Assembly (NCBI GenBank): GCA_964526075.1 | Contig: CAZGIA010000004.1 | Coordinates: 1-24,994 of the forward strand | Direction: 5' to 3' | DNA from: an uncultured Candidatus Saccharibacteria bacterium | Lineage (GTDB): Bacteria; Patescibacteriota; Minisyncoccia; Phycocordibacterales; Zambryskibacteraceae | DNA length: 24,994 nucleotides | Part shown: one piece after another, positions 3,008-24,994 of the stretch | Layout of the letters: each line of letters opens with the position of its first letter | How positions within the stretch are numbered: the stretch's first letter is position 1 | Notes under the pieces: model-generated | What the model was told of the DNA's origin: nothing | Database searches by the model: none | The model's input: the letters and a program-made list of their open reading frames with translations, nothing else | Translations under genes and position numbers: made by a program

Positions 3008-3050
3008 CCCATTCGATTGCACTCAGGGTCATAGTGAGTAATATCGAACT

Positions 3051-3527
3051 ATGATAAAAATTTATACAGATGGTTCATCAAGAGGAAACCCTGGTCCGGG
3101 AGGCTGGGGGGCTATTGTCATGGACGGCATTCGTACAATTGAGTTGGGTGGTAGGGAAGATCACACCACCAACAATCGCATGGAACTTTCAGCTGCTATA
3201 AAAGCTTTGGAATTTGTATCCAAACTGTCTGCTGACAACTGTGTACTGTTTACTGATTCTGAGTATGTCATGAAGGGGATTACAGAATGGATTAAGGGTT
3301 GGCAATTGCGTGGTTGGAGAACAACAGCTAAGAAACCGGTTTTGAATCAAGATCTCTGGCAAGCGTTGGTTCTTGCTTCAGACGAGAAGAAAATTGAGTG
3401 GAAGTATGTGGCCGGACATTCGGGGCATGAATATAATGAACGTTGCGATGAGATTGCCACTTCTTTTGCCGATGATCTCAATATCACTCTCTATAATGGA
3501 GCAAGTTCAGATTACAAACTTTCTTAA
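3051..3527 (+). CDS. rnhA: Ribonuclease HI
   Basis: IYTDGSSRGNPGPGGWG, TTNNRMEL, TDSEYV, GHSGHEYNERCD. Confidence 0.96.
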   Translation: MIKIYTDGSSRGNPGPGGWGAIVMDGIRTIELGGREDHTTNNRMELSAAIKALEFVSKLSADNCVLFTDSEYVMKGITEWIKGWQLRGWRTTAKKPVLNQDLWQALVLASDEKKIEWKYVAGHSGHEYNERCDEIATSFADDLNITLYNGASSDYKLS

Positions 3528-4899
3528 TCCAGTTTTACTGTTTATCCTTAGTTTTGTAGGAGGCGTCTTTGTCTCTTCATTCTTTTTTCTACCACCACTA
3601 ATTTTCCTTTTGATACTCTTTGTTGCTGTAGCGATTACTGTTGTTGAAAAAGTTTGGTATGGGAAAGTCGGATCCGAAGTCCTGTTACTGGTATTGTTAT
3701 TAATTGCTTTTTCTCTTGGTTCTTTGCGTTATGCTGTCAAGGATTTTCATGAACTTCAGTTACCGACAGAGACTGGAGTGGTGGTGAGTGAACCAGAAGA
3801 CAAAGATAATGTTAGAAGATTTGTTTTCCTTGCTGATAATAACGAGAAAGTGTTAGTTTCTGCTCCTCTCTACCATCAAGTACAATACGGTGACAAGGTG
3901 AAAGTGTCTGGGAAATTTGAAAAACCCGGTTTAATCGAATCTGAAGATAGTAGTCGTCCGTTTGATTATGGAAAGTATCTAGCTAAGGATGATATTTATT
4001 ACACTTTGAGCTTTGCCAATGTTTTAGTACTTTCAAGCGGGCATGGCAATCCGATAAAAGCCACCCTTTTTAAGATTAAGAGAAATTTTGTTGAGCAGGC
4101 TAAAACTATTTTGGCTGAACCATATGCTAGCCTACTTATGGGTCTTGTGGTCGCAGGACGGGATGCCTTACCTGCAAATATTCTTGAGGAGTTTCGTCGG
4201 GCTGGAGTGATTCATATTGTAGTTCTTTCAGGATTCAATATCACACTTATTGCTGACTTTCTCAGGAAACTTTTTCAGAATTTTTTCCTACGTTTGGGTT
4301 GGGCTCGCTTTCAGCATGCTCCAGCTTTTGCTTCGATTGTGGGTGTGACCTTGTTTGTCATTATGACTGGTGGAGAAGCTACTGTAGTAAGAGCAGCCCT
4401 CATGGCTTTTACCGTCATTGTGGCAGGTCTGTTTGGTCGAAATTATTCTGCTCCACGGGCACTTCTTATGGCTGGTTTTCTAATGCTATTACAAAATCCG
4501 AAGATATTAGTTTTCGATCCCTCTTTCCAGCTTTCTTTCCTTGCTACTCTTGGTCTCATTTATCTTGTGCCCTTAGTCGGACAATGGATAAAATGGGTTA
4601 CAGAGAAGTGGGAAATTAAACAAACTTTGGCTCAAACTATTGCTACTCAAATAGCTGTTCTTCCACTACTTATCTATCTAGTCGGTGATGTCTCCTTGGT
4701 TTCTTTGCCAGCCAATCTTCTCATTCTTCTTATCGTACCGTACACTATGCTGGTTGGATTTCTGGCGGTAATTATTTCGTATGTGAGTGTTGTAATTGCT
4801 TGGCCAATCACTTTGGTAACTCATCTGTTGCTATCGTGGATTCTTTTTGTCTCGCACTTCTTGGGTTCTTTGTCGTTTGCTACTGTGAAGCTTTTTTAA
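3496..4899 (+). CDS. comEC: ComEC/Rec2 competence membrane protein (no MBL domain)
   Basis: Multi-TM protein with AGVIHIVVLSGFNI, VVRAALM, SFQLSFLATLG and ANLLIL. ATG 3496 was chosen over the ORF-track start 3373 to minimise overlap with rnhA; the start is uncertain. Confidence 0.88.
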   Translation: MEQVQITNFLNPVLLFILSFVGGVFVSSFFFLPPLIFLLILFVAVAITVVEKVWYGKVGSEVLLLVLLLIAFSLGSLRYAVKDFHELQLPTETGVVVSEPEDKDNVRRFVFLADNNEKVLVSAPLYHQVQYGDKVKVSGKFEKPGLIESEDSSRPFDYGKYLAKDDIYYTLSFANVLVLSSGHGNPIKATLFKIKRNFVEQAKTILAEPYASLLMGLVVAGRDALPANILEEFRRAGVIHIVVLSGFNITLIADFLRKLFQNFFLRLGWARFQHAPAFASIVGVTLFVIMTGGEATVVRAALMAFTVIVAGLFGRNYSAPRALLMAGFLMLLQNPKILVFDPSFQLSFLATLGLIYLVPLVGQWIKWVTEKWEIKQTLAQTIATQIAVLPLLIYLVGDVSLVSLPANLLILLIVPYTMLVGFLAVIISYVSVVIAWPITLVTHLLLSWILFVSHFLGSLSFATVKLF

Positions 4900-5401
4900 A
4901 ATTCTCTTCGATTTTCTGCCAATTGAGATTGGCGAAAAAGTCTTCAATGTATTGTTTCTTGCCGGATGGTTGGTAGTCGGCGACGTAGGAGTGTTCCCAC
5001 ATATCGAGAGCGAGGATGGGGACGCATTGGGAGAGTTGGCCTAAGTGTTGTTCGTCTACCCAGCTTTGGATGAGTTGCTTAGAAATAGGATCGTAGTAAA
5101 GCATAGCCCAACCCACACCTCTAGTTAGTGCCAATGTTTTAAATTTCTCCCAATCGACTTCTCTGAGAGGACCACTTGGGGTGAGCGGAGTCGAACCACC
5201 TTCAAGAGACTTGAAATAAACTTCGTGATTCCTCATGCCGTTCCACTCGAAGGGGAAACGACGGTCGTATCTTTCCTGAGCCAAGAGTTCATTGGTGTTC
5301 TTCACATATCCAGCATAAAGCTTCAAGTGTTCCTCAATAGTCTTGTCGCTAATACCCTTGAGCTTAGGTATATTGAATGTATATTCTTCAAATGTTTTCA
5401 T
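4880..5401 (-). CDS. Fe/Mn superoxide dismutase family protein (compact)
   Basis: Metal-ligand motifs EEHLKLYAGYV, NHEVYF and LDMWEHSY. Confidence 0.88.
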   Translation of the reverse strand: MKTFEEYTFNIPKLKGISDKTIEEHLKLYAGYVKNTNELLAQERYDRRFPFEWNGMRNHEVYFKSLEGGSTPLTPSGPLREVDWEKFKTLALTRGVGWAMLYYDPISKQLIQSWVDEQHLGQLSQCVPILALDMWEHSYVADYQPSGKKQYIEDFFANLNWQKIEENFKKASQ

Positions 5402-8534: not shown

Positions 8535-8563
8535 ACAATTTCCAATAAACAATAAACAAGCAA

Positions 8564-12825: not shown

Positions 12826-12924
12826 TCGACTTGACTTATGGCAGGCAAGTTTCTCGCGCGCTTTTTTAGTTTCAGGAACAACTTCGCAACTTATTAAACT
12901 TATCTAACTTATTAAACTAAATTT

Positions 12925-14115: not shown

Positions 14116-14474
14116 TGTCTAAGCCTACTGCTCCAAAGAAGAAAGCTCCTAAGAAAGCTGTTGAAGCAGTGAGCCGACTTCGTATCCGCGTGCGAGCATA
14201 CGAATCCAAGATTCTAGACCTTTCGGTCAAACAGATCATGGATACAGCGCTTCGCTATGACGCAATGGTAGAGGGTCCCATCCCTCTACCAACTGAGAAG
14301 AAAATCTATACCGTGAATCGTGCACCATTCGTATACAAGAATGCGCGAGAACAGTTCGAGATGCGAATTCATAAACGACTCATAGATATAGTCAATCCTT
14401 CTCCCAAGGTGATTGAATCACTAACTAATCTTTCCCTACCTTCTGGCGTTAACATTGACGTCAAGATGATTTAG
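14115..14474 (+). CDS. rpsJ: 30S ribosomal protein S10
   Basis: RLRIRVRAYESKILD..GPIPLPT..REQFEMRIHKRLIDI, with a Lys/Ala-rich N-terminal extension. Confidence 0.97.
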   Translation: MSKPTAPKKKAPKKAVEAVSRLRIRVRAYESKILDLSVKQIMDTALRYDAMVEGPIPLPTEKKIYTVNRAPFVYKNAREQFEMRIHKRLIDIVNPSPKVIESLTNLSLPSGVNIDVKMI

Positions 14475-14500
14475 TTTGATTCATCACTACAAGTAGTAAC

Positions 14501-14959
14501 ATGGACAAAATTCGAGCTAAAAAAGAAAATATGACCCAGATCTTTGCTGAAAACGGCGAAGTCTTCGCTGTCACTCTACTGAAGCTCGTTGATGCCAAAG
14601 GTCAGACCTTAAGTACTGATTCCCAAGGTCTGACCTTGAAAGAGGGAGATGTCGTCACAGTTTCTGGTATCACCAAGGGTAAGGGCTTCCAAGGCGTAAT
14701 TAAGCGACATGGGTTTAAGGGAGGTCGACGTTCTCATGGTCAGAAACATTCTGAACGTGAAGCTGGTTCGATCGGTGGAGGTGGTCGCGCTGGAGGTCGT
14801 GTTGCTAAGGGCATGCGCATGGCTGGTCGCATGGGTGGAAGTAAGACCAGTGTGAAGAATCTTAGAGTGGTGAAGGTGCTCCCAGAAACTGGTGAGGTCT
14901 TCATCTCTGGAGCAGTGCCAGGAAGAAGGGGAACTAAGCTTGAAATCAAGAACCAGTAG
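14501..14959 (+). CDS. rplC: 50S ribosomal protein L3 (short, 152 aa)
   Basis: MTQIF..VTVSGITKGKGFQGVIKRHGF..RMAGRMG..GAVPG. Confidence 0.95.
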   Translation: MDKIRAKKENMTQIFAENGEVFAVTLLKLVDAKGQTLSTDSQGLTLKEGDVVTVSGITKGKGFQGVIKRHGFKGGRRSHGQKHSEREAGSIGGGGRAGGRVAKGMRMAGRMGGSKTSVKNLRVVKVLPETGEVFISGAVPGRRGTKLEIKNQ

Positions 14960-14987
14960 TTCTATGGCGATCACTACAAGTAAAAAC

Positions 14988-15686
14988 ATGGAAGCAAACA
15001 TCTATAGCTTAGAAGGAAAGAAAGCAGGTAACATTACTTTGCCAAAGAATATTTTTGGTCTGGAATGGAATGCTGATTTGGTCAAACAGGTGGCGGATTC
15101 TCTCATATCTTCGATTAGAAAGAATATTGCACATAGTAAGAATCGTGCGGAAGTGGCTGGTGGCGGCAAGAAACCATGGCAACAGAAGGGGACTGGTCGT
15201 GCGCGTCACGGTTCCATTCGTTCACCTATCTGGCGTCATGGTGGAGTCACTCATGGTCCACGTTCGGACAAGAATTTCCTTCGTGTTGTTTCGAAGAAGA
15301 TGAGGATAAAGGCGCTTTATACTATTCTCTCTAGAAAGTTTAAAGAAGGTGAAGTTCTTTTCCTCGATGCTATGACGCTTCCAGAAAATAAGACCAAGTC
15401 TGCGGTGCTTGCGCTCAATACTCTTTCCAAGGTTAAAGGTTTCAACTACGTCTTCTCTAAAAAGAAGAATGCTACCGTCATTGCTCTAGCGAAGAAAAAT
15501 AAGGTTCTTGAAAATGCTTTCTCCAACCTTGGCAATGTAGAAGTGATTGAGGCACGTAACCTAAGTCCACTTATCTTACTTAAATATAAGTATTTGATCT
15601 TCGAGAATCCTGATGTATCCTTGAAGTCTCTTCCTAAGCTTGCTACTCCCAAAGCTAGAAGCAAGAAGCTAGCAGCTAATACCTAG
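14988..15686 (+). CDS. rplD: 50S ribosomal protein L4
   Basis: KNRAEVAGGGKKPWQQKGTGRARHGSIRSPIWRHGGVTHGP. Start is 14988 (alternative 14964). Confidence 0.96.
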   Translation: MEANIYSLEGKKAGNITLPKNIFGLEWNADLVKQVADSLISSIRKNIAHSKNRAEVAGGGKKPWQQKGTGRARHGSIRSPIWRHGGVTHGPRSDKNFLRVVSKKMRIKALYTILSRKFKEGEVLFLDAMTLPENKTKSAVLALNTLSKVKGFNYVFSKKKNATVIALAKKNKVLENAFSNLGNVEVIEARNLSPLILLKYKYLIFENPDVSLKSLPKLATPKARSKKLAANT

Positions 15687-15690
15687 TCCA

Positions 15691-15984
15691 ATGACCAACA
15701 CCAACATCAAAGCAGAAAATGTGCTCCTTCGTGCCCATGTTACTGAGAAGGCAGCTCTTTCTGCAGATCGCTCTGGTGTCTACGTCTTTGACGTGAGTGA
15801 GAACTCCAACAAGACTTCGATTGCAGCTTCAGTGAAGGCGGTGTACAAAGTTACTCCAGTCAAGGTTCGTGTGACCAAGATTATGCCGAAAGCTGTTTTC
15901 GTTCGTGGAAAAAGGGGAGTAAAGAAGGGGGGTAAGAAGGCATACGTTTACCTTAAGAAAGGGGACAAGATTGAGTTAATTTAA
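15691..15984 (+). CDS. rplW: 50S ribosomal protein L23
   Basis: HVTEKA..YVFDVSENSNKTSI..KKAYVYLKKG. Confidence 0.95.
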   Translation: MTNTNIKAENVLLRAHVTEKAALSADRSGVYVFDVSENSNKTSIAASVKAVYKVTPVKVRVTKIMPKAVFVRGKRGVKKGGKKAYVYLKKGDKIELI

Positions 15985-15985
15985 T

Positions 15986-16007
15986 CCTTCGACTACGCTC
16001 AGGATAA
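15986..16007 (+). repeat. REP-like dispersed element, copy B
   Basis: CCTTCGACTACGCTCAGGATAA, 1 nt after the rplW stop. Confidence 0.85.
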
Positions 16008-16022
16008 ATTTTCAAGAAATTT

Positions 16023-16862
16023 ATGAAAAAATATAAACCCACCAGTAAGTCTCGTCGCAGCATGACCGGAATCAATTTCCGAAAACTTTTGAGTGGGAAT
16101 AAACCTGAGAAATCTCTTACGAAAGGTTTCCGCCGTGGTTCTGGTAGAAATCAATCAGGCAAGGTTACAACTCGTCATAAGGGAGGAGGGCATAAGAGAA
16201 CTTTTCGAAATGTAGATTTTTTCTATAACAAATATGATATTCCTTTTACAATTAAAACCGTTGAATACGATCCCAATCGTTCAGGCTTTATAGGTATTGC
16301 ACAATATGCTGATGGTGAGAAACGCTACGTTCTCCTCCATAACACAGCCCAAATTGGTGACACTTATATAGTTTCTGAGAAGGCGAATTCCACTCCGGGG
16401 AATCGTATGCCACTTGGCAATATGCTTGTTGGTACCTTCATCTACAATATTGAGTTGAAACATAAGGGTGGTGCCAAAATTGCTCGTTCCTCCGGCGATT
16501 ATGCTGAACTTCTAGCCAAGGATGGTGGTTATGTAGATATCAAACTTCCTTCATCTGAAGTGAGAAAGGTTCCAGCCAATGCTTGGGCATCTATTGGTGA
16601 AGTTTCTAACAACGAAAACAGATTGGTCAATCTCGGCAAAGCAGGTCGTTCACGTTGGCTTGGTATTCGTCCTACTGTTCGTGGTACTGCTCAGAATCCG
16701 GTAGATCATCCACATGGAGGAGGTGAAGGTAGGCAGGGTAGAGGTCGTCGTCGTGCGATCTCAGTTTATGGTAAACCGACCGGTAAGGGTCAGAAGTCTC
16801 GCCGAGCCAAGAAATATTCAAATAAGTTTATAGTCCGAAGGAGAAAAGTGGGCAAAAAATAA
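16023..16862 (+). CDS. rplB: 50S ribosomal protein L2
   Basis: EYDPNRS, PTVRGTAQNPVDHPHGGGEGR. Confidence 0.98.
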   Translation: MKKYKPTSKSRRSMTGINFRKLLSGNKPEKSLTKGFRRGSGRNQSGKVTTRHKGGGHKRTFRNVDFFYNKYDIPFTIKTVEYDPNRSGFIGIAQYADGEKRYVLLHNTAQIGDTYIVSEKANSTPGNRMPLGNMLVGTFIYNIELKHKGGAKIARSSGDYAELLAKDGGYVDIKLPSSEVRKVPANAWASIGEVSNNENRLVNLGKAGRSRWLGIRPTVRGTAQNPVDHPHGGGEGRQGRGRRRAISVYGKPTGKGQKSRRAKKYSNKFIVRRRKVGKK

Positions 16863-16997
16863 AAAGAATTCAATTTTTTTACCTCGCGATAATTCTCTGC
16901 TGAGAATTTCGCTTTTGAGGCCATGAGAAGTCATATTATGACTCCTCATCTTGTGAAAGGCGCGAAAATCAACCTTCTTTTTACTTGTGTAGAGCTA

Positions 16998-17026
16998 TTG
17001 ACTATTTTAAATAAAGTTTGTATAGT
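16998..17026 (+). promoter_or_regulatory. Promoter of cassette 4
   Basis: TTGACT-17-TATAGT; GAGG at 17053-17056. Confidence 0.8.
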
Positions 17027-17061
17027 AAAAATAGACGCGAATTTTAGGAATTGAGGCACAT

Positions 17062-17391
17062 ATGACGATGACAAGGGAAGAATTTCTCAACCTGGTTCAG
17101 GAGGCGGTCGAAATCGTTGATGGAGGCCAAACGGACGAGGAGGATAAAAAGAACGAGAACGATGAGCTGTGGGACGACAACGGAAAGTTGCATGGGGGCT
17201 TCTACGCCGCTTCTGAAAGGGCCGCCAGAGAAGTAGGTCTCCCAGTCACGGAAGAGAAGGGAGATCTGGTGGTCCTGGCTATCTATTGGCGGCAGGAGGA
17301 CGCTTTGTTTGGAGAAGAAGGCCCTTCTTTGAAGCTTCCAGATCTGATTCGCCATATCGATGCGGCGTGGGAGCACATGCAGAAACTCTAG
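17062..17391 (+). CDS. 109-aa acidic ORFan, cassette 4
   Basis: Has its own promoter, SD and terminator; about 26 D/E versus 11 K/R; no family recognised. Confidence 0.72.
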   Translation: MTMTREEFLNLVQEAVEIVDGGQTDEEDKKNENDELWDDNGKLHGGFYAASERAAREVGLPVTEEKGDLVVLAIYWRQEDALFGEEGPSLKLPDLIRHIDAAWEHMQKL

Positions 17392-17401
17392 TTCTTCATC
17401 T

Positions 17402-17427
17402 GGGCGGACCATCGCGGTCCGCCCTTT
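17402..17427 (+). terminator. Hairpin terminator of cassette 4
   Basis: GGGCGGACC-ATCGC-GGTCCGCCC followed by TTT. Confidence 0.75.
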
Positions 17428-17460
17428 GCATATGTAGATACAATGTATATACTTATGTAT

Positions 17461-17697
17461 ATGACTACTAAGCTGAAAAGGTGGGGCAATAGTTATGGTA
17501 TTCGCGTACCTAAGAGCGAAGCTAAAAGATTGGGTATAAAAGAAGGTAGCCCAGTTAAATTTAATATCGAGCTCGTAAAGAAAAGAAAATATACCCTAGA
17601 GGAACTTGTGGCTCAAATTAATCCCAAAAATAGACACCCACTAATTGACTGGGGGCCTGATGTGGGTAACGAAATCTTACCTGAATGGAAAGAGTAA
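17461..17697 (+). CDS. mazE: AbrB/MazE family antitoxin
   Basis: TKLKRWGNSYGIRVPK..KYTLEELVAQINP..IDWGPDVGNE. Starts at ATG 17461, 7 nt after TATACT. Confidence 0.93.
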   Translation: MTTKLKRWGNSYGIRVPKSEAKRLGIKEGSPVKFNIELVKKRKYTLEELVAQINPKNRHPLIDWGPDVGNEILPEWKE

Positions 17698-18023
17698 AAT
17701 ATATTCCTGAGCGAGGTGATATTGTGAAGTTAAATTTAGGCCCCACCAGAGGTCACGAGCAGAGCGGCTACAGGCCTTTTGTAATTTTGTCTCGCTCAAT
17801 TTTTAATATGAATGGCGGGCATACCATTGGATGTCCGATTACTTCTAGAATCAGACATGACCCATTTGAAACACTCATAAATACATCAAGTGTTAAGGGT
17901 GTGATTTTAATTGATCAGATCCGTACAATTGACTATCTTTCTCGCAAGGTTAAGTATGTCTGCAAATGTCCGCCAGAAGTTCTATATGAAGTTACATCAA
18001 AACTAGAAACCTTAATCCATTAG
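17685..18023 (+). CDS. mazF: PemK/MazF family endoribonuclease toxin
   Basis: YIPERGDIVKLNLGPTRGHEQSGYRPFVILS..CPITS..DQIRTID; overlaps the antitoxin by 13 nt. Confidence 0.94.
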   Translation: MERVKYIPERGDIVKLNLGPTRGHEQSGYRPFVILSRSIFNMNGGHTIGCPITSRIRHDPFETLINTSSVKGVILIDQIRTIDYLSRKVKYVCKCPPEVLYEVTSKLETLIH

Positions 18024-18127
18024 TTGCCGAGCTAAGAAATATTCCAACAAGTTTATTGTTTCAAGACGCAAGGTTGGGAAGAGGAAATAAGATAAGAGAT
18101 TCAATGGAATTAAGATTTTTTGGTATC

Positions 18128-18156
18128 TTGCATTTTTTTTGTAAACCTTGTAAGGT
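18128..18156 (+). promoter_or_regulatory. Promoter for rplJ-rplL
   Basis: TTGCAT-17-TAAGGT. Confidence 0.6.
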
Positions 18157-18171
18157 ATCCTTCGTAAGGTC

Positions 18172-18206
18172 AAAGATAAGAGGCAAACATAAGTCCTCTT
18201 GAGATC
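18172..18206 (+). ncRNA. Probable L10 leader (autoregulatory kink-turn mimic)
   Basis: AAAGAT-AAGAGG-caaacataagt-CCTCTT-GAGATC upstream of rplJ; AGA..stem..UAA..stem..GAG layout resembles known L10 leaders. Confidence 0.6.
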
Positions 18207-18257
18207 AGAATTCCTTCTTTCCTTATATGTATCTTTTACTAATTAATAGTAACTTTG

Positions 18258-18746
18258 ATGGCTATATCAAAGCAGAAGAAAGCAGATGTAGTTGAGAAAT
18301 TGGTGGGAGCCTTCAAGACAGCTCAATCTCTCGTCTTCGTGAACTTCAAAGGTCTGACTGTGGGCAAGACCACCAAGATGAGAGGAGAGCTTAAGAAAGA
18401 GGGCGTTTCTTATTCTGTAGCTAAAAAAACTCTCACTGACAGAGCGCTTGATGCTCAGAGCTATGTGGGTGATAAACCAGTGTTTGAAGGTGAACTTGCG
18501 ATAGCTTGGGGAGAAGATCTTCTTACTCCGGCAAGGGAGGTTTATACTTTCGTCAAGAAATTTCCCGAGAATCTTAAAATCTTAGGGGGAGTTTTCGAAG
18601 GTAGGTACATGTCCAAGGTGGAGATTGAAGAGATCGCTATGATTCCTCAGATTCCAGTCTTGCGTGGGATGTTTGTAAATATCATCAATTCTCCAATCCA
18701 GAGGTTCGTGATCGCTCTCGGCGAAATCGCTAAGACTAAAAATTAA
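18258..18746 (+). CDS. rplJ: 50S ribosomal protein L10
   Basis: MAISKQKK..FVNFKGLTV..YSVAKKTL..ILGGVFEG. Confidence 0.95.
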   Translation: MAISKQKKADVVEKLVGAFKTAQSLVFVNFKGLTVGKTTKMRGELKKEGVSYSVAKKTLTDRALDAQSYVGDKPVFEGELAIAWGEDLLTPAREVYTFVKKFPENLKILGGVFEGRYMSKVEIEEIAMIPQIPVLRGMFVNIINSPIQRFVIALGEIAKTKN

Positions 18747-18764
18747 AAATTGAAAATTAACAAT

Positions 18765-19136
18765 ATGTCAGATAAAACAGAAAAAATTATTGCAGAGGTT
18801 GAAGGTATGACAGTCCTCGAGCTCAATGTGTTGGTCAAGGCGTTCGAAGAGAAGTTCGGTGTGAGTGCCACAGCTGTCGCAGGACCCGCCTCCGCGCAAG
18901 GCTCCGGCGAGGTGATAGAAGAGAAGTCTACAGCTGATGTGGAACTTTCCTCATCAGGCGACAACAAGATTGCTGTCATTAAGGTAGTAAAGGAGGTTCT
19001 AGCTCTTGGTCTCAAGGAAGCTAAGGATCTCGTTGATGCCGCTCCATCTATGCTCAAAATTGGTATGAAGAAGGAAGAGGCAGAAGCCTTTAAGGCAACT
19101 ATTGAAACAGCAGGAGGAAAAGTTACCTTGAAGTAA
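18765..19136 (+). CDS. rplL: 50S ribosomal protein L7/L12
   Basis: [50 protein letters not shown]. Confidence 0.97.
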
Positions 19137-19266
19137 CTGTCGGGAGGGTTACCCTCGGTATATACTTGGAGGTTGAACCACTAAGTGTGATGAACCAACG
19201 GGCGCTCATAGTTATGGGTACTTTTGTCTGGTTGTAACTTATTCTTTGTCAGTTTAGAATACGGCT

Positions 19267-19890
19267 ATGTCTAAATCGGTTGCGCTTATCTTCGGAGGGG
19301 AGGGAAAGGTTAAGATTATGCGTCTTTTCATCTTTAATCCTGGAATTATTTTCACTTCATCTGAAGTTTCCAAGCGAGCCAAGGCTTCTCCTCTTGCTAC
19401 TAGACGAGAGCTTGGGGTTCTTCTTAAGGCTGGACTTATCAAGAAAGGCATCAAGGGTTATGTTCTCAATCGTTCCTATCGTTTCTTGACTGCTATAGGG
19501 AATTTCTTAATAGATGCTACTCCTCTCTCTGAAAGAGAGATAATTCGTAAGATTTCTTCAGCTGGCAATGTGAAGCTCATCCTCATAGCTGGAGTTTTTC
19601 TCCATAATTTAGATTCTAGGGTAGATATCCTTATAGTAGGGGATCATATAAAGCAAGGGAAGCTTCTCTCTGCTATTTCTTCTATTGAAGCTGAGCTTGG
19701 CAAAGAGCTTCGTTATGCAGTTTTTGAAACTCACGACTTCCAATATCGCTTGGGTATTTATGACAAGCTTATTAGAGACATTCTCGAGTCTCAGCATGAG
19801 AAAATTCTTAACAAATTGGGACTCCAAGCTCCTGCTAGTAACCCCTTAAATAAGGGAATGACTACTCCATCGGTTATCCACAGCATCTAA
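19267..19890 (+). CDS. Winged-HTH plus nucleotidyltransferase-like fold protein (hypothetical)
   Basis: N-terminal HTH-like LIFGG..KVKIMRLF..RRELGVLLKAGLI; C-terminal GVFL..DSRVDILIVGD resembles the MNT-fold GS/DxD region. Preceded by TTGTAA-17-TAGAAT-6-ATG. Confidence 0.65.
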   Translation: MSKSVALIFGGEGKVKIMRLFIFNPGIIFTSSEVSKRAKASPLATRRELGVLLKAGLIKKGIKGYVLNRSYRFLTAIGNFLIDATPLSEREIIRKISSAGNVKLILIAGVFLHNLDSRVDILIVGDHIKQGKLLSAISSIEAELGKELRYAVFETHDFQYRLGIYDKLIRDILESQHEKILNKLGLQAPASNPLNKGMTTPSVIHSI

Positions 19891-19980
19891 TTTCTCCTTT
19901 TTAGGGCTTAGATTTAGTTGTATAATTAATCCATACCCCTTTTAGAGGTAATTAATAGTTGAATATTCAGTTAAGAACAT

Positions 19981-20676
19981 ATGTTATTAAACACATGGAA
20001 TGAAGTTCTGACTCTTTCCTTCCAGAATCTCTGGGTAGGAGTGATCAACTTCGTTCCGAATCTGGTAATTGCACTCGTGATCCTCGTTCTTGGTTGGCTT
20101 ATTGGAGCCCTTTTGGGTCGCGCAGTTTGGCAAGTCATCAAGTCTCTCAAGGTTGACGAAGCTCTTCGGCGAGCGGGTCTTGAGACCTTCCTCCGTCGTG
20201 GTGGTGTAGATCTAGACTCAGGAGCCTTCTTAGGAGCTCTGGTGAAATGGTTTGTGATCGTAGTCTTCCTTGTAGCAGCTTTTGATGTCTTGGGTCTTTC
20301 CCAGGTTAATCTATTCCTTCAGGAGGTAGTTCTCGGTTATTTGCCACGAGTAATCGCAGCAGCCTTGGTGCTTCTTGTGGGAGGTGTGGTTGGTGATGTG
20401 GCTGGTCGTGTAGTCCTTACAGCCGCAAAAACTGCTGGTGTACATTCAGCACATTTTGCTTCGGCTGTGGCTAAGTGGGCGCTCTGGATTTTCGCAATCC
20501 TCGTGGCTCTCTCCCAACTCGGGATTGCTACCGCTTTCAGCCAAACTCTCTTTACTGGTCTGGTTATCGCTATCTCCTTGGCTCTTGGTCTTTCCTTCGG
20601 TCTTGGTGGTCAAGAGGCAGCTTCTCGTTACATCGAGAGATTGCGTGCTGAGATGAGTGGTCGAAACAACGGTTAA
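19981..20676 (+). CDS. MscS-associated TM-helix (CmpX-like) membrane protein
   Basis: Two repeated hydrophobic units (FVPNLVIALVILVLGWLI / YLPRVIAAALVLLVGGVV) and C-terminal ALGLSFGLGGQEAA. Confidence 0.8.
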   Translation: MLLNTWNEVLTLSFQNLWVGVINFVPNLVIALVILVLGWLIGALLGRAVWQVIKSLKVDEALRRAGLETFLRRGGVDLDSGAFLGALVKWFVIVVFLVAAFDVLGLSQVNLFLQEVVLGYLPRVIAAALVLLVGGVVGDVAGRVVLTAAKTAGVHSAHFASAVAKWALWIFAILVALSQLGIATAFSQTLFTGLVIAISLALGLSFGLGGQEAASRYIERLRAEMSGRNNG

Positions 20677-20735
20677 GTATTAGATCTTTAACCTACTCTA
20701 GGTTAGGAATTAGCTAGATAATACTTAAAGCGAGC

Positions 20736-20760
20736 AAAATCCGCCTTATGGGCGGATTTT
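20736..20760. terminator. Bidirectional intrinsic terminator
   Basis: AAAATCCGCC-TTATG-GGCGGATTTT. Confidence 0.85.
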
Positions 20761-20781
20761 GTTATATTTCTATGGATCGAT

Positions 20782-20810
20782 TTGACTTCATCCCTTGTTT
20801 TCTATACTAT
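20782..20810 (+). promoter_or_regulatory. Promoter for the rpsS-onward block
   Basis: TTGACT-17-TACTAT. Confidence 0.65.
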
Positions 20811-20856
20811 ATTTTATACAAGCGTTTCTGCGCTTTTTGTTTTCGTAACAACACAA

Positions 20857-21198
20857 ATGACACGTTCATCGATCAAAGGTCCATATGTTGACCCTCGCGT
20901 CTTGAAGAAGCTTGAGGGGAAGAAACCCGGCACTACTGGTGTTATTAAGACCTGGTCTAGAGCTTGTCAGGTGGCTCCCGAGATGGTTGGTTTTACCTTC
21001 GGAGTCCACAATGGTCGAGATCATATAGAAGTATTTATCACCGAGGACATGGTTGGACACCGCCTCGGTGAATTTTCGCTTACGAGAAAATTTCTTCGCC
21101 ATGGTGGCAAGATGCAGAAGGAGCTTGAGACCAAGCAGAAGGAGGGGGAGATTGCTGCAGCCAAGGCCGCTAAGGGCTCGGAAGCTACTAAAAAGTAA
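20857..21198 (+). CDS. rpsS: 30S ribosomal protein S19
   Basis: [30 protein letters not shown], with a C-terminal extension. Confidence 0.97.
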
Positions 21199-21223
21199 TT
21201 TTTAATTTTTAATTTAAAAACTT

Positions 21224-21604
21224 ATGAATGAAGTTAAAGCAGAATTAAAAAATTATCGACAATCACCACGCAAGGTACGCTTGGTTGCTGATATGTTGCG
21301 TGGTAAGCCGATAGAAGAGGCTCTCACTCTTCTCTCTTTTGTACCCAAGCGAGCTGCCCTACCCTTATTGAAGTTACTAGCTTCAGCAAAAGCCAATGCG
21401 GTAAGCTTGGCCATTCCTACGGAGAATTTGAGAGTTAAGTCTATAATGGTTGATTCTGGCGCCATTTTATACAGAAGGATGCCACGCAGTCGTGGTATGG
21501 CCAATCCTTTAAGAAAGCGTACCAGCCATGTCAAAGTAGTTCTGGCTGAAGGCAAACCAAAGAAAATTAAAGCTAAAAGCAAGAAGCTAGCACCTAGCAC
21601 CTAA
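21224..21604 (+). CDS. rplV: 50S ribosomal protein L22
   Basis: YRQSPRKVRLVADMLRG..RMPRSRG..KRTSHVKVVL. Confidence 0.97.
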   Translation: MNEVKAELKNYRQSPRKVRLVADMLRGKPIEEALTLLSFVPKRAALPLLKLLASAKANAVSLAIPTENLRVKSIMVDSGAILYRRMPRSRGMANPLRKRTSHVKVVLAEGKPKKIKAKSKKLAPST

Positions 21605-21608
21605 TCCT

Positions 21609-22277
21609 ATGACCCACACAGTCCATCCTTATTCCCATCGTCTAGGTATGATCCGAGATTGGAAGTCTCGTTGGTTTTCTCCTAAGGGTAAGTACCAGAT
21701 AGCTCTTAAGGGTGACATTCTTATTCGTGAGTATCTTGAGAAGAAACTTAAAGGTTTCTTTGTCGCAGATATCGAGATTGAAAGAAGTGAGAAGCAGATG
21801 CGTGTAATTCTCTCCAGTTCTCGCCCAGGCATGATCATCGGTCGTCAAGGCGATGGGGCTGAAGCTCTGAGAAGTGAACTTAGGAAACTTCTCAGTAAGA
21901 ATAATCTCCTTGATGAAAAGAAGGTGGATCTCAAGCTTGATATCAAGGAAGTCAAGAACGCCGAGGCCAATGCCGCTATTGTAGCTCAGATGGTAGTTGA
22001 AGGACTTGAGAAACGTATGACCTTCCGTCGTGTGATGAAGATGACTGTAGAGAAGGTTATGGCCAATCGTGACGTTTTAGGAGTTAAGATAGTGCTTTCT
22101 GGTATGATCACCAGCGGTATGGCTCGTACTGAGACCCTCAAGAAGGGGCGTATTCCGCTTCAAACTTTTCGAGCTGATGTGGATTACGCTTGTACTACCG
22201 CTCGTCTCACTCTAGGAGCTGTGGGTGTGAAGGTTTGGATTTACAAGGGAGATATCTTTGCTGATGCAAAAAAATAA
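21609..22277 (+). CDS. rpsC: 30S ribosomal protein S3
   Basis: VHPYSHRLG..SSRPGMIIGRQG..GRIPLQTFRADVDY..GVKVWIYKG. Confidence 0.97.
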   Translation: MTHTVHPYSHRLGMIRDWKSRWFSPKGKYQIALKGDILIREYLEKKLKGFFVADIEIERSEKQMRVILSSSRPGMIIGRQGDGAEALRSELRKLLSKNNLLDEKKVDLKLDIKEVKNAEANAAIVAQMVVEGLEKRMTFRRVMKMTVEKVMANRDVLGVKIVLSGMITSGMARTETLKKGRIPLQTFRADVDYACTTARLTLGAVGVKVWIYKGDIFADAKK

Positions 22278-22360
22278 CTAATTTCTAATTGACCTAATTA
22301 ACCTAAAATGAACTCACTTAGAACAATTAGAATAATTAGAAATTAGAATAATTTACTATT

Positions 22361-22777
22361 ATGTTTTTCCCAAAAAAAGTTAAATACAGAAAGTGGCACA
22401 CCATGAGGAAAAATCCAACCAAGGTTGGCGTAGCGTCTCGTGGTGTGACAGTGGCTTTCGGATCCTTTGGTCTCAAGGCCATGGCTCCAGCTCGTATTAA
22501 ATCGAATCAAATTGAATCAGCTCGAAAAGTACTTTCTCGTTCAATAGGTAAGACTGGTCGACTTTGGATTCGTATCTTTCCTGATATGCCTTACACTGAG
22601 AAGCCAGCGGAGGTGAAGCTTGGAAAAGGCAAAGGAGATTTGGCTGGTTATGTCGCTCCGGTACTTCCGGGTCGTATCCTTTTCGAGGTTGATGGCATTG
22701 AGGAGGCTATGGCCAGAGAGGCCTTGAGAAAGGCAGGTACTAAGCTTCCAGTTAAGACTAAAATTGTGGCCAGATAG
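22361..22777 (+). CDS. rplP: 50S ribosomal protein L16
   Basis: PKKVKYRKWH..QIESARK..WIRIFPD..GKGKG. Confidence 0.97.
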   Translation: MFFPKKVKYRKWHTMRKNPTKVGVASRGVTVAFGSFGLKAMAPARIKSNQIESARKVLSRSIGKTGRLWIRIFPDMPYTEKPAEVKLGKGKGDLAGYVAPVLPGRILFEVDGIEEAMAREALRKAGTKLPVKTKIVAR

Positions 22778-22798
22778 TTCGTAAACTCATAAAGTAAT

Positions 22799-22978
22799 AT
22801 GAAAAAGACCAATTATATCGGGAAGACAAAAGAGGATCTTGTAAAATCTCTATACGAAAAGAGAGAATCACTTCGTGCTTTCCGTTTTGGTGAAGCTGGC
22901 TCAAAAACTAGAAATGTGAAGGAAGGTATTAGTTTAAGAAAGGATATTGCCCGTATCATGACTGAACTGAATAAATAG
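22799..22978 (+). CDS. rpmC: 50S ribosomal protein L29
   Basis: 59-aa ORF missing from the track: MKKTNYIGKTKEDLVKSLYEKRESLRAFRF..LRKDIARIMTELNK, in the canonical position between rplP and rpsQ. Confidence 0.92.
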   Translation: MKKTNYIGKTKEDLVKSLYEKRESLRAFRFGEAGSKTRNVKEGISLRKDIARIMTELNK

Positions 22979-23002
22979 TTCGACAAGCTCACTACAAGTA
23001 AT

Positions 23003-23251
23003 ATGAACAAAAAACAAACAAAAGGAAAAATACTTTCTGGCATAGTCATCTCCACCAAGATGAAGGATACTATTGTGGTGAAGGTAGATCGATTTGAAAA
23101 ACATGCCAAATATGAGAAGTTCATCAAGCGCTCCAAGAAGTTCAAGGCTCATGATGCTAGCAATACTGCTACTCTTGGTGATAAGGTAGATATCGTTGAA
23201 ACTAAGCCAATTTCTAAGGACAAACACTTCAGGCTAGTCCCTAGAACCTAG
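23003..23251 (+). CDS. rpsQ: 30S ribosomal protein S17
   Basis: GIVISTKMKDTIVV..KKFKAHD..IVETKPISKDKHFRL. Confidence 0.97.
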   Translation: MNKKQTKGKILSGIVISTKMKDTIVVKVDRFEKHAKYEKFIKRSKKFKAHDASNTATLGDKVDIVETKPISKDKHFRLVPRT

Positions 23252-23269
23252 TCCCTAGCACCTACCTAA

Positions 23270-23641
23270 ATGATCCAAGCACAAAGTATAGTTCAAATAG
23301 CAGATAACTCTGGCGCCAAGATCGGCAGAGTCTTCAAGGTGCTTGGTGCATCCAAGAAGCGTACAGCCTCAATTGGTGAACTAGTCGTCCTCTCTGTGCA
23401 AAAAGCTGAGCCCCGCAAGCAGGTCAAGAAGAAGGATGTGCTCTATGGGGTGGTGGTTCGTCAGAAATCACCTTTCCGCAGAAAGGACGGCACCTATCTT
23501 CGCTTTGATGAAAATGCGGTTGTGATTCTTGATAATGCTAAGAAGGAGCCGATGGCTGGTCGTGTCTTCGGGCCAGTACCGAGAGAGATTGGTGAGCGTG
23601 GTTTCCAAAGTATTATTTCTAAGGCCCCTGAAGTCGTATAG
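23270..23641 (+). CDS. rplN: 50S ribosomal protein L14
   Basis: MIQ..ADNSGAK..RFDENAVVI..RVFGPVPREI. Confidence 0.98.
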   Translation: MIQAQSIVQIADNSGAKIGRVFKVLGASKKRTASIGELVVLSVQKAEPRKQVKKKDVLYGVVVRQKSPFRRKDGTYLRFDENAVVILDNAKKEPMAGRVFGPVPREIGERGFQSIISKAPEVV

Positions 23642-23667
23642 TTTAAAGCTGATTATAAATAACTTTT

Positions 23668-23883
23668 ATGCACGTCAAAAAAGGAGACAACATTATAGTA
23701 CTTACCGGTAAGGACAGGGGTGTCTCTGGTAAGATTTTGCGTGCTTTTCCAAGTGAGGGCATGGTCTTAGTTGAAGGTGTAAATATTAAAAAAGTTCACG
23801 AAAAATCAAAGAAGGGTAAGGGCAAGGGCCAGATTATTGAAAAGGCTTTTCCAATTCATGTCTCGAATGTGAGAAAGCAATGA
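23668..23883 (+). CDS. rplX: 50S ribosomal protein L24 (short, 71 aa)
   Basis: VKKGDNIIVLTGKDRG..VLVEGVN..PIHVSNV. Confidence 0.95.
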   Translation: MHVKKGDNIIVLTGKDRGVSGKILRAFPSEGMVLVEGVNIKKVHEKSKKGKGKGQIIEKAFPIHVSNVRKQ

Positions 23884-23904
23884 ATATTGTAAATTAGCGA
23901 AACC

Positions 23905-24417
23905 ATGGAAACACTTAAACAAAAAACAAAGACATTAGAGGGATACAAAAATTCTATGCAGAAGCCTAAGATTACAAAGGTGGTAGTTTCGACTGGTGTT
24001 GGTTCATTTAAAGACAAGAATAAATTCAAGATAGTTGAAGATCGTCTGGCACGTATCACTGGTCAGAAAGCAGCTCCACGTAGTGCCAAGGTCTCGATTG
24101 CAACTTTTAAGAGTCGTGAGGGTGATGTAGTGGGGTATCAGGTCACCCTCCGTGGGAAGAGGATGCATGATTTCCTTGAACGCCTTATCCATTTAGCCCT
24201 TCCTCGTACCAAGGATTTCCGTGGCATCAACATCTCTGGGGCTGATGAAATGGGGAATCTTACTATAGGGATCAAGGAACATAGTATTTTTCCAGAAACT
24301 ACTGATGAGGAGCTCAAAGATATCTTTGGCTTTGCTGTGACAGTGGTTACAACTGCCAAGAGTAAGGAAGAAGTCTTAAAATTCTTAACCCATCTTGGCT
24401 TTCCGTTTAAGAAATAA
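23905..24417 (+). CDS. rplE: 50S ribosomal protein L5
   Basis: PKITKVVVSTGVG..ITGQK..VTLRGKRM..LPRTKDFRG..IFPE. Confidence 0.96.
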   Translation: METLKQKTKTLEGYKNSMQKPKITKVVVSTGVGSFKDKNKFKIVEDRLARITGQKAAPRSAKVSIATFKSREGDVVGYQVTLRGKRMHDFLERLIHLALPRTKDFRGINISGADEMGNLTIGIKEHSIFPETTDEELKDIFGFAVTVVTTAKSKEEVLKFLTHLGFPFKK

Positions 24418-24440
24418 TGTGTTAGAATCTCGTCGCTTAT

Positions 24441-24626
24441 ATGGCCAAAACATCAGTAATCGCAAGAAGTAAAAAGAAGCCCAAGTTTCAAACTAGGGCT
24501 ACTAATCGTTGTTTTCGCTGTGGTCGTGGTCGAGGCTATATGAGAGATTTTGATCTCTGTAGAATTTGTTTTCGTGAACTTGCAAATGAAGGTAAGATTC
24601 CAGGGGTTAAGAAGGCTTCCTGGTAG
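24441..24626 (+). CDS. rpsN: 30S ribosomal protein S14, Zn-binding (type Z)
   Basis: [17 protein letters not shown]. Confidence 0.96.
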
Positions 24627-24653
24627 TTCGATAAACTCACTATAAATATTTAT

Positions 24654-24994
24654 ATGGATCAAATTTCTAATTTCATCATCAAGCTAAAAAATGCAGGCAA
24701 TGCTGGAGCCGAGAGTGTTACTATGCCTGCCTCCAAACTCAAACTTTCTATTGCTGAGGTTTTGAAGAAAGAGGGTTTCGTGAAGGGTTGTGCTCAGAAG
24801 TCTGAGAAGGGAAGACCAGTTATTCTTGTCTCACTTTTTTCAGAGAATCGTGTTCCGAAAATCAAGGGTGTGAAGCGAATTTCTAAACCTTCTAAACGCA
24901 TTTACAAGAAAGCTACCGAATTACGTTCAGTAAAAAATGGTTATGGGGCACTCATCCTCTCTACTTCTCTAGGGGTGATGACAGGTAAGCAGGC
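24654..24994 (+). CDS. rpsH: 30S ribosomal protein S8 (partial, runs off the window)
   Basis: MDQISNFIIKLKNA..SKLKLSIAEVLKKEGFV..RISKPSKRIY..ILSTSLGVMT. Confidence 0.95.
   Translation, partial: MDQISNFIIKLKNAGNAGAESVTMPASKLKLSIAEVLKKEGFVKGCAQKSEKGRPVILVSLFSENRVPKIKGVKRISKPSKRIYKKATELRSVKNGYGALILSTSLGVMTGKQ

Follow-up and report, generated by a model that had tools for sequence, protein, structure and literature searches.

A short repeat at stop/start junctions of ribosomal protein operons in a Patescibacteria genus as a candidate mini-insertion element

Within a 24,994-nt stretch of DNA from an uncultured Candidatus Saccharibacteria bacterium (GTDB order Phycocordibacterales, family Zambryskibacteraceae; GenBank assembly GCA_964526075.1, contig CAZGIA010000004.1, positions 1 to 24,994 of the forward strand), several spacers between ribosomal protein genes are variants of one short sequence that begins with the TAG stop of the upstream gene. 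We refer to the whole stretch as the window and to the repeated spacer as the element. A preliminary description of the window had offered three readings of these spacers: a mini element that targets or supplies TAG stops, a signal for translation initiation or coupling independent of the Shine-Dalgarno (SD) sequence, or a binding site for a ribosomal protein repressor. The feature is real and lineage-wide, and from the comparison of sequences we consider it reasonably probable that the spacer is a mini-insertion element, without a hairpin or an open reading frame (ORF), that is tolerated at stop/start junctions.

Under this proposal, copies would be pasted in gene direction into TA dinucleotides at tightly packed gene junctions, nearly always into the TA of a TAA stop lying 0-10 nt ahead of the next ATG, and would afterwards decay or be lost. 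Tolerance of such insertions may come from the RNA, which has no structure and is rich in A and U near the start, so that a ribosome ending at UAG would still reach the next AUG. Copying would be strand-specific, and one of the many Y1 transposases of the IS200/RAYT type in the genome may act on the element in trans.

Anatomy, distribution and precise insertion

About 76 copies inspected in many genomes give the consensus TA/G-TTCGAY-N3-5-CTCAC-TAYAAR-TA/A, with an ATG 0-9 nt later. The element, 21 nt to which a duplicated TA is added, has a total length of 23-24 nt and is non-palindromic and non-coding; the YAAR part of its second box is nearly always TAAA or CAAG, and two direct 7-mers, CGAYAAR and CTAYAAR, lie 11 bp apart within it. 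In roughly 85% of the inspected copies a substantial ORF upstream ends in frame at the TAG, and in about 80-85% an ATG-led ORF starts 0-9 nt past the final TA, while some 15% have no nearby ATG or no upstream ORF. Flanks counted among 74 fuzzy copies show TAG before the element in 49 and TA after it in 54, the next base being A in 47 of those 54; a G ahead of the TAG is only occasional. There is no start codon inside the element, and our own reading of the window copies shows no conserved frame from TAG to ATG. Read from the sequence, the two ends, GTTCGAC and CTATAAA, are not inverted repeats. No RNA structure was found (fold z-scores from -1.05 to +0.64, no conserved stem), and the element matched no Rfam family and no ribosomal protein leader.

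For the distribution of intact copies we searched with the two-box pattern TTCGAY-N3-7-TCACTAYAARTA and used the reversed pattern as the control. The 462-kb source genome holds four exact copies, and its genus holds 132 in 31 of 37 genomes against no match of the control. Across the order (401 genomes, one reversed match), exact copies occur in 17 of 223 sampled genera from at least 14 families, with 1-9 copies each, so that 6 of the 37 genus genomes and 206 of the 223 genera have none. Within the window alone, the 12-mer TCACTACAAGTA with up to two mismatches was not above chance (4 found versus 1.9 expected). The preliminary description had held that absence from the rest of the genome would refute a mobile element; copies are present on other contigs and in other genomes. 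Full-text searches with motif strings and of the Parcubacteria/Patescibacteria literature on leaderless genes and the SD sequence found no published description of the element.

The source genome contains about 14 copies, degenerate ones included, among some 450 genes, at a variable spacing of 0-9 nt from the ATG. Ribosomal or initiation factor 1 (IF1) junctions carry 11 of the 13 forward copies and make up about 13% of co-directional junctions, an enrichment that rests partly on manual listing, as the crude ORF caller lost most small ribosomal genes. Copies cluster at neighbouring junctions, and non-ribosomal junctions also carry them (next to murG-like, ksgA and membrane protein genes). The orientation of the copies was one check that the preliminary description had proposed, and all junction copies proved to be co-directional with their flanking genes. 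In the near-closed genome G042, the comparison of copy orientation with the replication strand drew on three copies, and the intergenic context of one of these is unclear. Conservation was another proposed check: the element is lineage-wide in the genus and patchy at individual orthologous junctions. Two junctions, rpsN/rpsH and rpsH/rplF, are filled in distant families too, with identical boxes and only the linker varying.

The case for insertion comes from filled and empty versions of the same junction. We aligned the ribosomal protein cluster of 20 other genus genomes with that of the source genome, junction by junction, giving 21 genomes in all (L numbers denote loci of relatives, G numbers genomes, and G000 the source genome). 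In most genomes the majority of junctions are very short (TAATG, TAATATG or TAAATTTATG), and a minority are filled. Upstream of rplX, for instance, L055 reads gtagtcTA, then 23 nt, then AATTTATG, where L050 reads gtggtcTAAATTTATG, so that the difference is exactly the element. The same exact-element difference separates L060 from L046 at rplX, with TAAATATCATG, as well as L048 from L049 at rpsH and L055 from L046 at rplR. Altogether the precise 23-nt difference with TA on both sides was seen at rplX, rpsH, rplR, rpmC and rplO. Because these pairs differ by the exact element, the insert lies in the TA^A of the TAA stop. Its effect is to turn TAA into TAG, to regenerate TAA behind the insert and to move the next start about 23 nt further downstream, leaving both genes undamaged. 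The second TA of TAATATG is used as well, giving TAATAG...GTA-TG (L087, L078), and in these cases the TAG therefore need not be the stop.

Further signs of copying are nested or tandem copies, seen in L049 (rplB), L053 (rplC) and L054 (rplC), and genome-specific linkers that the copies of one genome have in common: GGG occurs twice in G148, TTCG likewise in G264, and five of the six G011 copies have AAG. Clustering at neighbouring junctions and the range of decayed copies point the same way. Every junction is patchy across the 21 genomes, and a concatenated ribosomal protein tree shows sister species of which one has the element at a given junction and the other does not. The proposal of a mini element that targets or supplies TAG stops is thus backed by the filled and empty junctions, the TA...TA flank, the change from TAA to TAG, the nested copies and the genome-specific variants. 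Fourfold degenerate sites differ by 48-69% between these genomes while the copies stay near-identical, and the copies are therefore either recent or strongly constrained. At two junctions where L055 and L060 have a copy in common, the copies differ by 1 nt each, compared with 62% at fourfold sites.

Candidate mobilisers and known small repeats

A possible mobiliser is at hand in the source genome, which encodes eight Y1_Tnp (IS200/RAYT-like) paralogs of 205-224 aa, the nearest lying just past the window (G000:C4:32438-33055). Each Y1 gene is bracketed by a palindrome of its own that recurs at 4-12 other places in the genome; these genes and palindromes look like several systems of the REPIN type (paired repetitive extragenic palindromes, REPs) side by side. 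Over the 37 genus genomes the number of elements correlates with the number of Y1_Tnp genes (Spearman 0.44, a figure whose significance is overstated by kinship among the genomes). None of the six genomes that lack exact copies has more than one Y1 gene, and at least two are present in 28 of the 31 that have copies. We read the correlation as a sign that the element forms part of the mobile-DNA load; it does not prove what mobilises it. A DDE_3 transposase was found in only one of five element-rich genomes.

Several observations weigh against an insertion element. No transposition machinery is tied to it, and it has neither terminal inverted repeats nor a hairpin, one or the other of which known DDE and Y1 transposases need. 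This requirement for a hairpin does not fit the element, which also bears no relation to the hairpins on either side of the Y1 genes, and G002 and G042 carry copies with no Y1 gene at all. Random TA insertion followed by purifying selection may not fully explain why some 85% of copies occupy the TA of the stop codon itself and why every junction copy runs in the direction of the genes. The filling of rpsN/rpsH and rpsH/rplF in distant families could mean that these are ancient copies under selection. Four DNA runs revealed no presence/absence polymorphism at the copies of the window. What would fit the element is the manner in which Y1 enzymes insert and excise, which is strand-specific and scarless (PMC3116915, PMC3733652).

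The closest known counterparts share some of these properties. Mycobacterial interspersed repetitive units (MIRUs) are described, in the account that PMC3184786 gives of Supply et al. 1997, as operon-junction repeats of 40-100 bp with imperfect terminal and GC-rich internal inverted repeats and with a small ORF that overlaps the stop and start of its neighbours. The element is similar in being a small, gene-oriented repeat between genes of one operon that leaves both flanking genes intact at a stop/start junction, and in both cases filled and empty sites and short direct repeats suggest transposition. It differs in its size of 23 nt, in having no inverted repeat and no ORF, and in bringing its own TAG stop.

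In size, nesting and the lack of coding capacity the element resembles the small dispersed repeats (SDRs) of cyanobacteria reported in 2008. These are said to be 21-27 nt long and without coding capacity, with insertion deduced from interrupted conserved sequences, with nested or tandem copies and with a mobiliser that was not known. The likeness is one of kind and not of sequence: SDRs belong to another phylum, show no sequence similarity to the element and are not known to target stop codons or operon junctions or to keep strictly to the direction of genes. They are cited in PMC3116915 and PMC2884548.

REPs fold into palindromic hairpins that bear a GTAG or CGTC tag, and their associated RAYT proteins are Y1 transposases (PMC3116915, PMC3733652). 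Like them, the element is a short intergenic repeat often found right behind stop codons in operons. Its numbers correlate with those of the Y1_Tnp genes, though G002 and G042 have copies and no such gene. Unlike them, it forms no hairpin, and the Y1 genes here have their own unrelated palindromes. Miniature inverted-repeat transposable elements (MITEs) of the IS630/Tc1-mariner type share the TA target duplicated on both sides, but the element lacks terminal inverted repeats and is several times smaller than any described MITE. With no ORF, no hairpin and no inverted repeats, the element does not have the structure by which MIRUs, REPs and MITEs are recognised.

Ribosome hand-over and other readings

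The source genome is tiny and resembles those of the candidate phyla radiation (CPR). SD-like motifs are rare in it, a few genes retaining GGAGG at SD distance, and TAnAAT has a sharp maximum at -12/-13 relative to the ATG, which is the signature of leaderless mRNAs. The source assembly contains no 16S gene; the five genus genomes that have one read GGAGTAATTCAATTYGAAA after helix 45, with no CCTCC, giving the tail GGAGUAAUUCAAUUYGAAA. CCUCC is likewise lacking in seven genera of the order, whether or not the element is present, and the 16S 3' ends of L031, L032, L033, L034, L037, L122, L123 and L126-L130 read GGA(G/A/T)T(A/T)(A/T)TTCAA... after helix 45. In these 12 loci the 23S gene does not follow the 16S gene. 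Anti-SD loss in a subgroup of Parcubacteria is recorded in PMC9297842, in passages that do not address its consequence.

In this setting the element could be a functional RNA signal for SD-independent coupling or reinitiation, by which a ribosome (70S or 30S) that terminates at UAG is kept and handed to an AUG 0-9 nt on, and which selection would spread and keep, above all in highly expressed ribosomal operons. We regard this as possible, if rather unlikely. In its favor, about 85% of copies have their TAG in frame as the stop of an upstream ORF, about 80-85% have an ATG-led ORF starting within the next 0-9 nt, every junction copy is co-oriented with the genes, and 11 of the 13 forward copies lie at ribosomal or IF1 junctions. 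The same junctions are filled in several families with identical boxes and a varying linker, and the copies common to L055 and L060 have changed by a single nucleotide each while 62% of fourfold sites differ. With no CCUCC in the 16S of the genus or the order and with first genes mostly leaderless, internal cistrons also need some other route to initiation.

A signal of this kind is difficult to reconcile with the state of most orthologous junctions in the genus, which are empty and have TAATG or TAAATTTATG instead, or with the absence of exact copies from 6 of the 37 genomes of the genus and from 206 of the 223 genera sampled in an order that lacks the anti-SD throughout. Moreover, many copies are decaying, the TAG is not the stop in the TAATAG cases, about 15% of copies have no nearby ATG or upstream ORF, the distance to the ATG is variable, and complementarity to the 16S tail or body does not exceed that of shuffled sequences. 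A more specific form of the idea, in which the 23-nt cassette is a dedicated hand-over signal whose boxes TTCGAY and CTCACUAYAAR retain the UAG-terminated ribosome through a protein or rRNA site until it reinitiates at the next AUG, seems to us unlikely.

The pairing tests were equally negative. As a new anti-SD interaction, the duplex of motif and tail reaches -5 to -7 kcal/mol, no better than with shuffled tails; upstream regions in general are no more complementary to the genus tail than to shuffled tails; and pairing of the motif with the whole 16S gives z-scores of about 0 to -1, not above shuffles. An SD-type signal would be generally present at a fixed distance from the start, and the element, with about 14 copies for some 450 genes at 0-9 nt, is not. 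Loss of release factor 1 (RF1), which would make UAG special, was discarded on finding two PCRF genes, that is, both release factors. The suggestion of an SD-independent initiation or coupling signal thus gained no support, there being no complementarity to the 16S of the genus, most orthologous junctions of close relatives being empty, and the anti-SD being absent throughout the order from genomes with and without the element. As most junctions and most genomes of this anti-SD-less order do without the element, translation there does not require it. Ribosomal operons are exceptionally dense in tight TAA-ATG junctions, and this together with local hopping can account for the enrichment of the element in them; a role in ribosome hand-over is possible.

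A repressor site for ribosomal proteins, the third of the initial readings, was not supported either, as copies also occur at the non-ribosomal junctions named above, are patchy and are unstructured. As a ribosomal protein operator the element was rejected on its position, which is not conserved across the 21 genomes, together with the lack of structure, the lack of an Rfam leader and, again, its presence at non-ribosomal junctions. It is not a Nus-factor boxA, for the conserved element of the rRNA leader reads CGTCTTAACTA and nothing motif-like was seen there. Resemblance to the 3' half (T-arm) of a tRNA amounts to a 21/26 match inside a 173-aa minus-strand ORF (4880-5401), ARAGORN predicts no tRNA on the contig that holds this ORF, and we treated the match as chance.

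The element might instead act at the level of DNA, either as a compact internal promoter in which TATAAA serves as the -10 box of mRNAs with no or a short leader, or as the site of a regulator that reads CGAYAAR and CTAYAAR. The genome does use TAnAAT 6-7 nt before the ATG on a large scale, the TATAAA of the element is suitably spaced at the rpsH, rplC and rplD copies of the window, and a reverse partial copy gives rnhA a TAATAT box. Two 7-mers 11 nt apart also resemble the layout of winged-helix response-regulator boxes. We nevertheless hold this very unlikely, for the distance from TATAAA or TACAAG to the ATG is most often 4 nt and varies between 2 and 11 nt, as against the sharp 6-7 nt of the genome's leaderless promoters, the conserved final T is missing from the TACAAG variant, TTCGAC lies only 8-9 nt from the -10-like box where a sigma-70 -35 element would lie at 17 nt, and an in-frame TAG stop has no reason to be at a DNA site. 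The variable ATG distance and the 8-9 nt spacing of TTCGAC do not fit a sigma-70 leaderless promoter. The element contains CTCACTATA, which equals the T7 promoter core, and TATAAGTA is the yeast mitochondrial promoter; we discarded a promoter of this type on finding no PF00940 polymerase in the 37 genus genomes, in a search whose 14 named controls were also unmatched and whose sensitivity was therefore not shown.

An RNA processing site, where an endoribonuclease such as a RelE-like enzyme acting at the UAG, or the MazF encoded in the operon, would cut and free the downstream cistron, is in our view highly improbable. The lineage favors leaderless mRNAs, a mazEF pair lies within the S10 operon of the window, and a UAG stop with a UACA-type core presumably resembles the cleavage preferences of such toxins. 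A cut at the UAG would, however, leave a leader of 25-35 nt and not a leaderless mRNA, the TATAAA variant has no ACA, and the element is present in many genomes and families.

Copies in the window, their surroundings and implications

Five forward spacers had been noted in the preliminary description, and each was confirmed to run from the upstream TAG stop to the next ATG. Two are intact. The copy at rpmC/rpsQ (22976-23005, plus strand) consists of the L29 TAG stop, the TTCGAC box, the linker AAG, the CTCAC-TACAAG-TA box and AT before the S17 ATG, and the copy at rpsN/rpsH (24624-24656, plus strand) of the S14 TAG stop, TTCGAT, the linker AAA, CTCAC-TATAAA-TA and 5 nt before the S8 ATG; relatives mostly have tggTAAaaatATG at the latter junction. 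In the best-covered source run, X1, short-read contigs end on both sides of this rpsN/rpsH copy (24602-24652). The other three are decayed plus-strand copies: at rpsJ/rplC (14472-14503) box 1 is mutated to TTTGAT and box 2 (TCACTACAAGTA) is intact, at rplC/rplD (14957-14990) a longer linker separates an intact box 2 from box 1, which is mutated to TTCTAT, and at rplP/rpmC (22775-22801) a shortened copy reads TAGTTCGTAAACTCATAAAGTAAT followed by ATG. The 12-mer was verified as exact at 14484, 14971 and 22989. Pfam identifies the flanking genes as those for S10, L3, L4, L16, L29, S17, S14 and S8.

Two degenerate plus-strand copies had been missed. At rplW/rplB (about 15985-16025) a sub-variant, TTCGACTACGCTCAGGATAAAT, stands after a TAA stop and 13 nt ahead of the ATG; it is also nested within another copy in the relative locus L053. 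The junction rplN/rplX (23639-23670) holds a strongly decayed copy, TAGTTTAAAGCTGAT-TATAAATAA...ATG, at a position where at least seven relatives have intact copies. The decayed copies of the window form a graded series of four or five, and degenerate copies continue beyond it, at rplR/rpsE and, on another contig, at rplM/rpsI, rpsK/rpsD and in the spacer before infA.

The reverse-strand partial copy reported between recJ and rnhA (3031-3051, minus strand) was borne out by sequence and by Pfam (DHH/RecJ_OB for recJ, RNase_H for rnhA). The TA of this copy is immediately next to the TG of the ATG that starts rnhA, and we estimate from base frequencies that about 0.002 such copies would arise by chance per genome. 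The reverse complement of the copy provides a TAATAT -10-like box 6 nt before the rnhA ATG; this fragment of the element may have been co-opted as the -10 box of a leaderless rnhA.

Other features of the region were recorded alongside. The L3 gene (14501-14959) encodes 152 aa and matches only positions 175-288 of the 369 in the Pfam profile, and the ATG at 14964, inside the decayed rplC/rplD copy, is a false start of L4, whose N-terminus fits 14988. In the S10 operon, an insert of about 4 kb (16862-20857) separates rplB from rpsS and contains mazE/mazF (17443-18023), rplJ-rplL (18258-19136), an unknown gene of 207 aa and a gene for an MscS-like membrane protein; a 553-nt piece of it is variable, 16862 being joined to 17416 in some strains of the source samples. 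Spacers of tandem 7-9-mers (AACTTATTAAAC, AATAAACAAT, TAATTTT and AATTAGAAT) lie at 12880-12924, 8535-8563, 21199-21223 and 22300-22360, and repeats of the CTAGNNCC type at gene ends (about 15640-15690, 21560-21608 and 23220-23269). Two tandem repeats, at 21196 and 23240, vary between strains by one 7-nt unit. Elsewhere in the genome, three near-identical leaderless promoters (G000:C1:24781, C1:42194 and C20:4293) have TTCG every 10 nt or so (ATTCGTATCATTCGATCAAATTCGTTATAATTCG) and look as if they share the site of a regulator. Spacers similarly rich in ATTCG are found in the ribosomal operons of the relatives L043, L045 and L053.

In practice, the element breaks short-read assemblies and can mislead gene callers on starts, as at 14964. 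Were it a dedicated hand-over signal, the cassette would spread by raising downstream expression, as a portable stop-plus-restart module that replaces SD-based coupling. If it is instead the mini-insertion element that we propose, it would be among the smallest elements that behave as mobile DNA, entering stop codons with single-base precision and strict orientation. Known transposition chemistries are no obvious fit for such behavior, which would point to an undescribed copy mechanism or to an unusual use of Y1 enzymes. For the biology of this lineage, the dozens of orthologous junctions that have either a gap of 0-10 nt or a 23-nt insert are natural experiments on operon-internal translation without an anti-SD.

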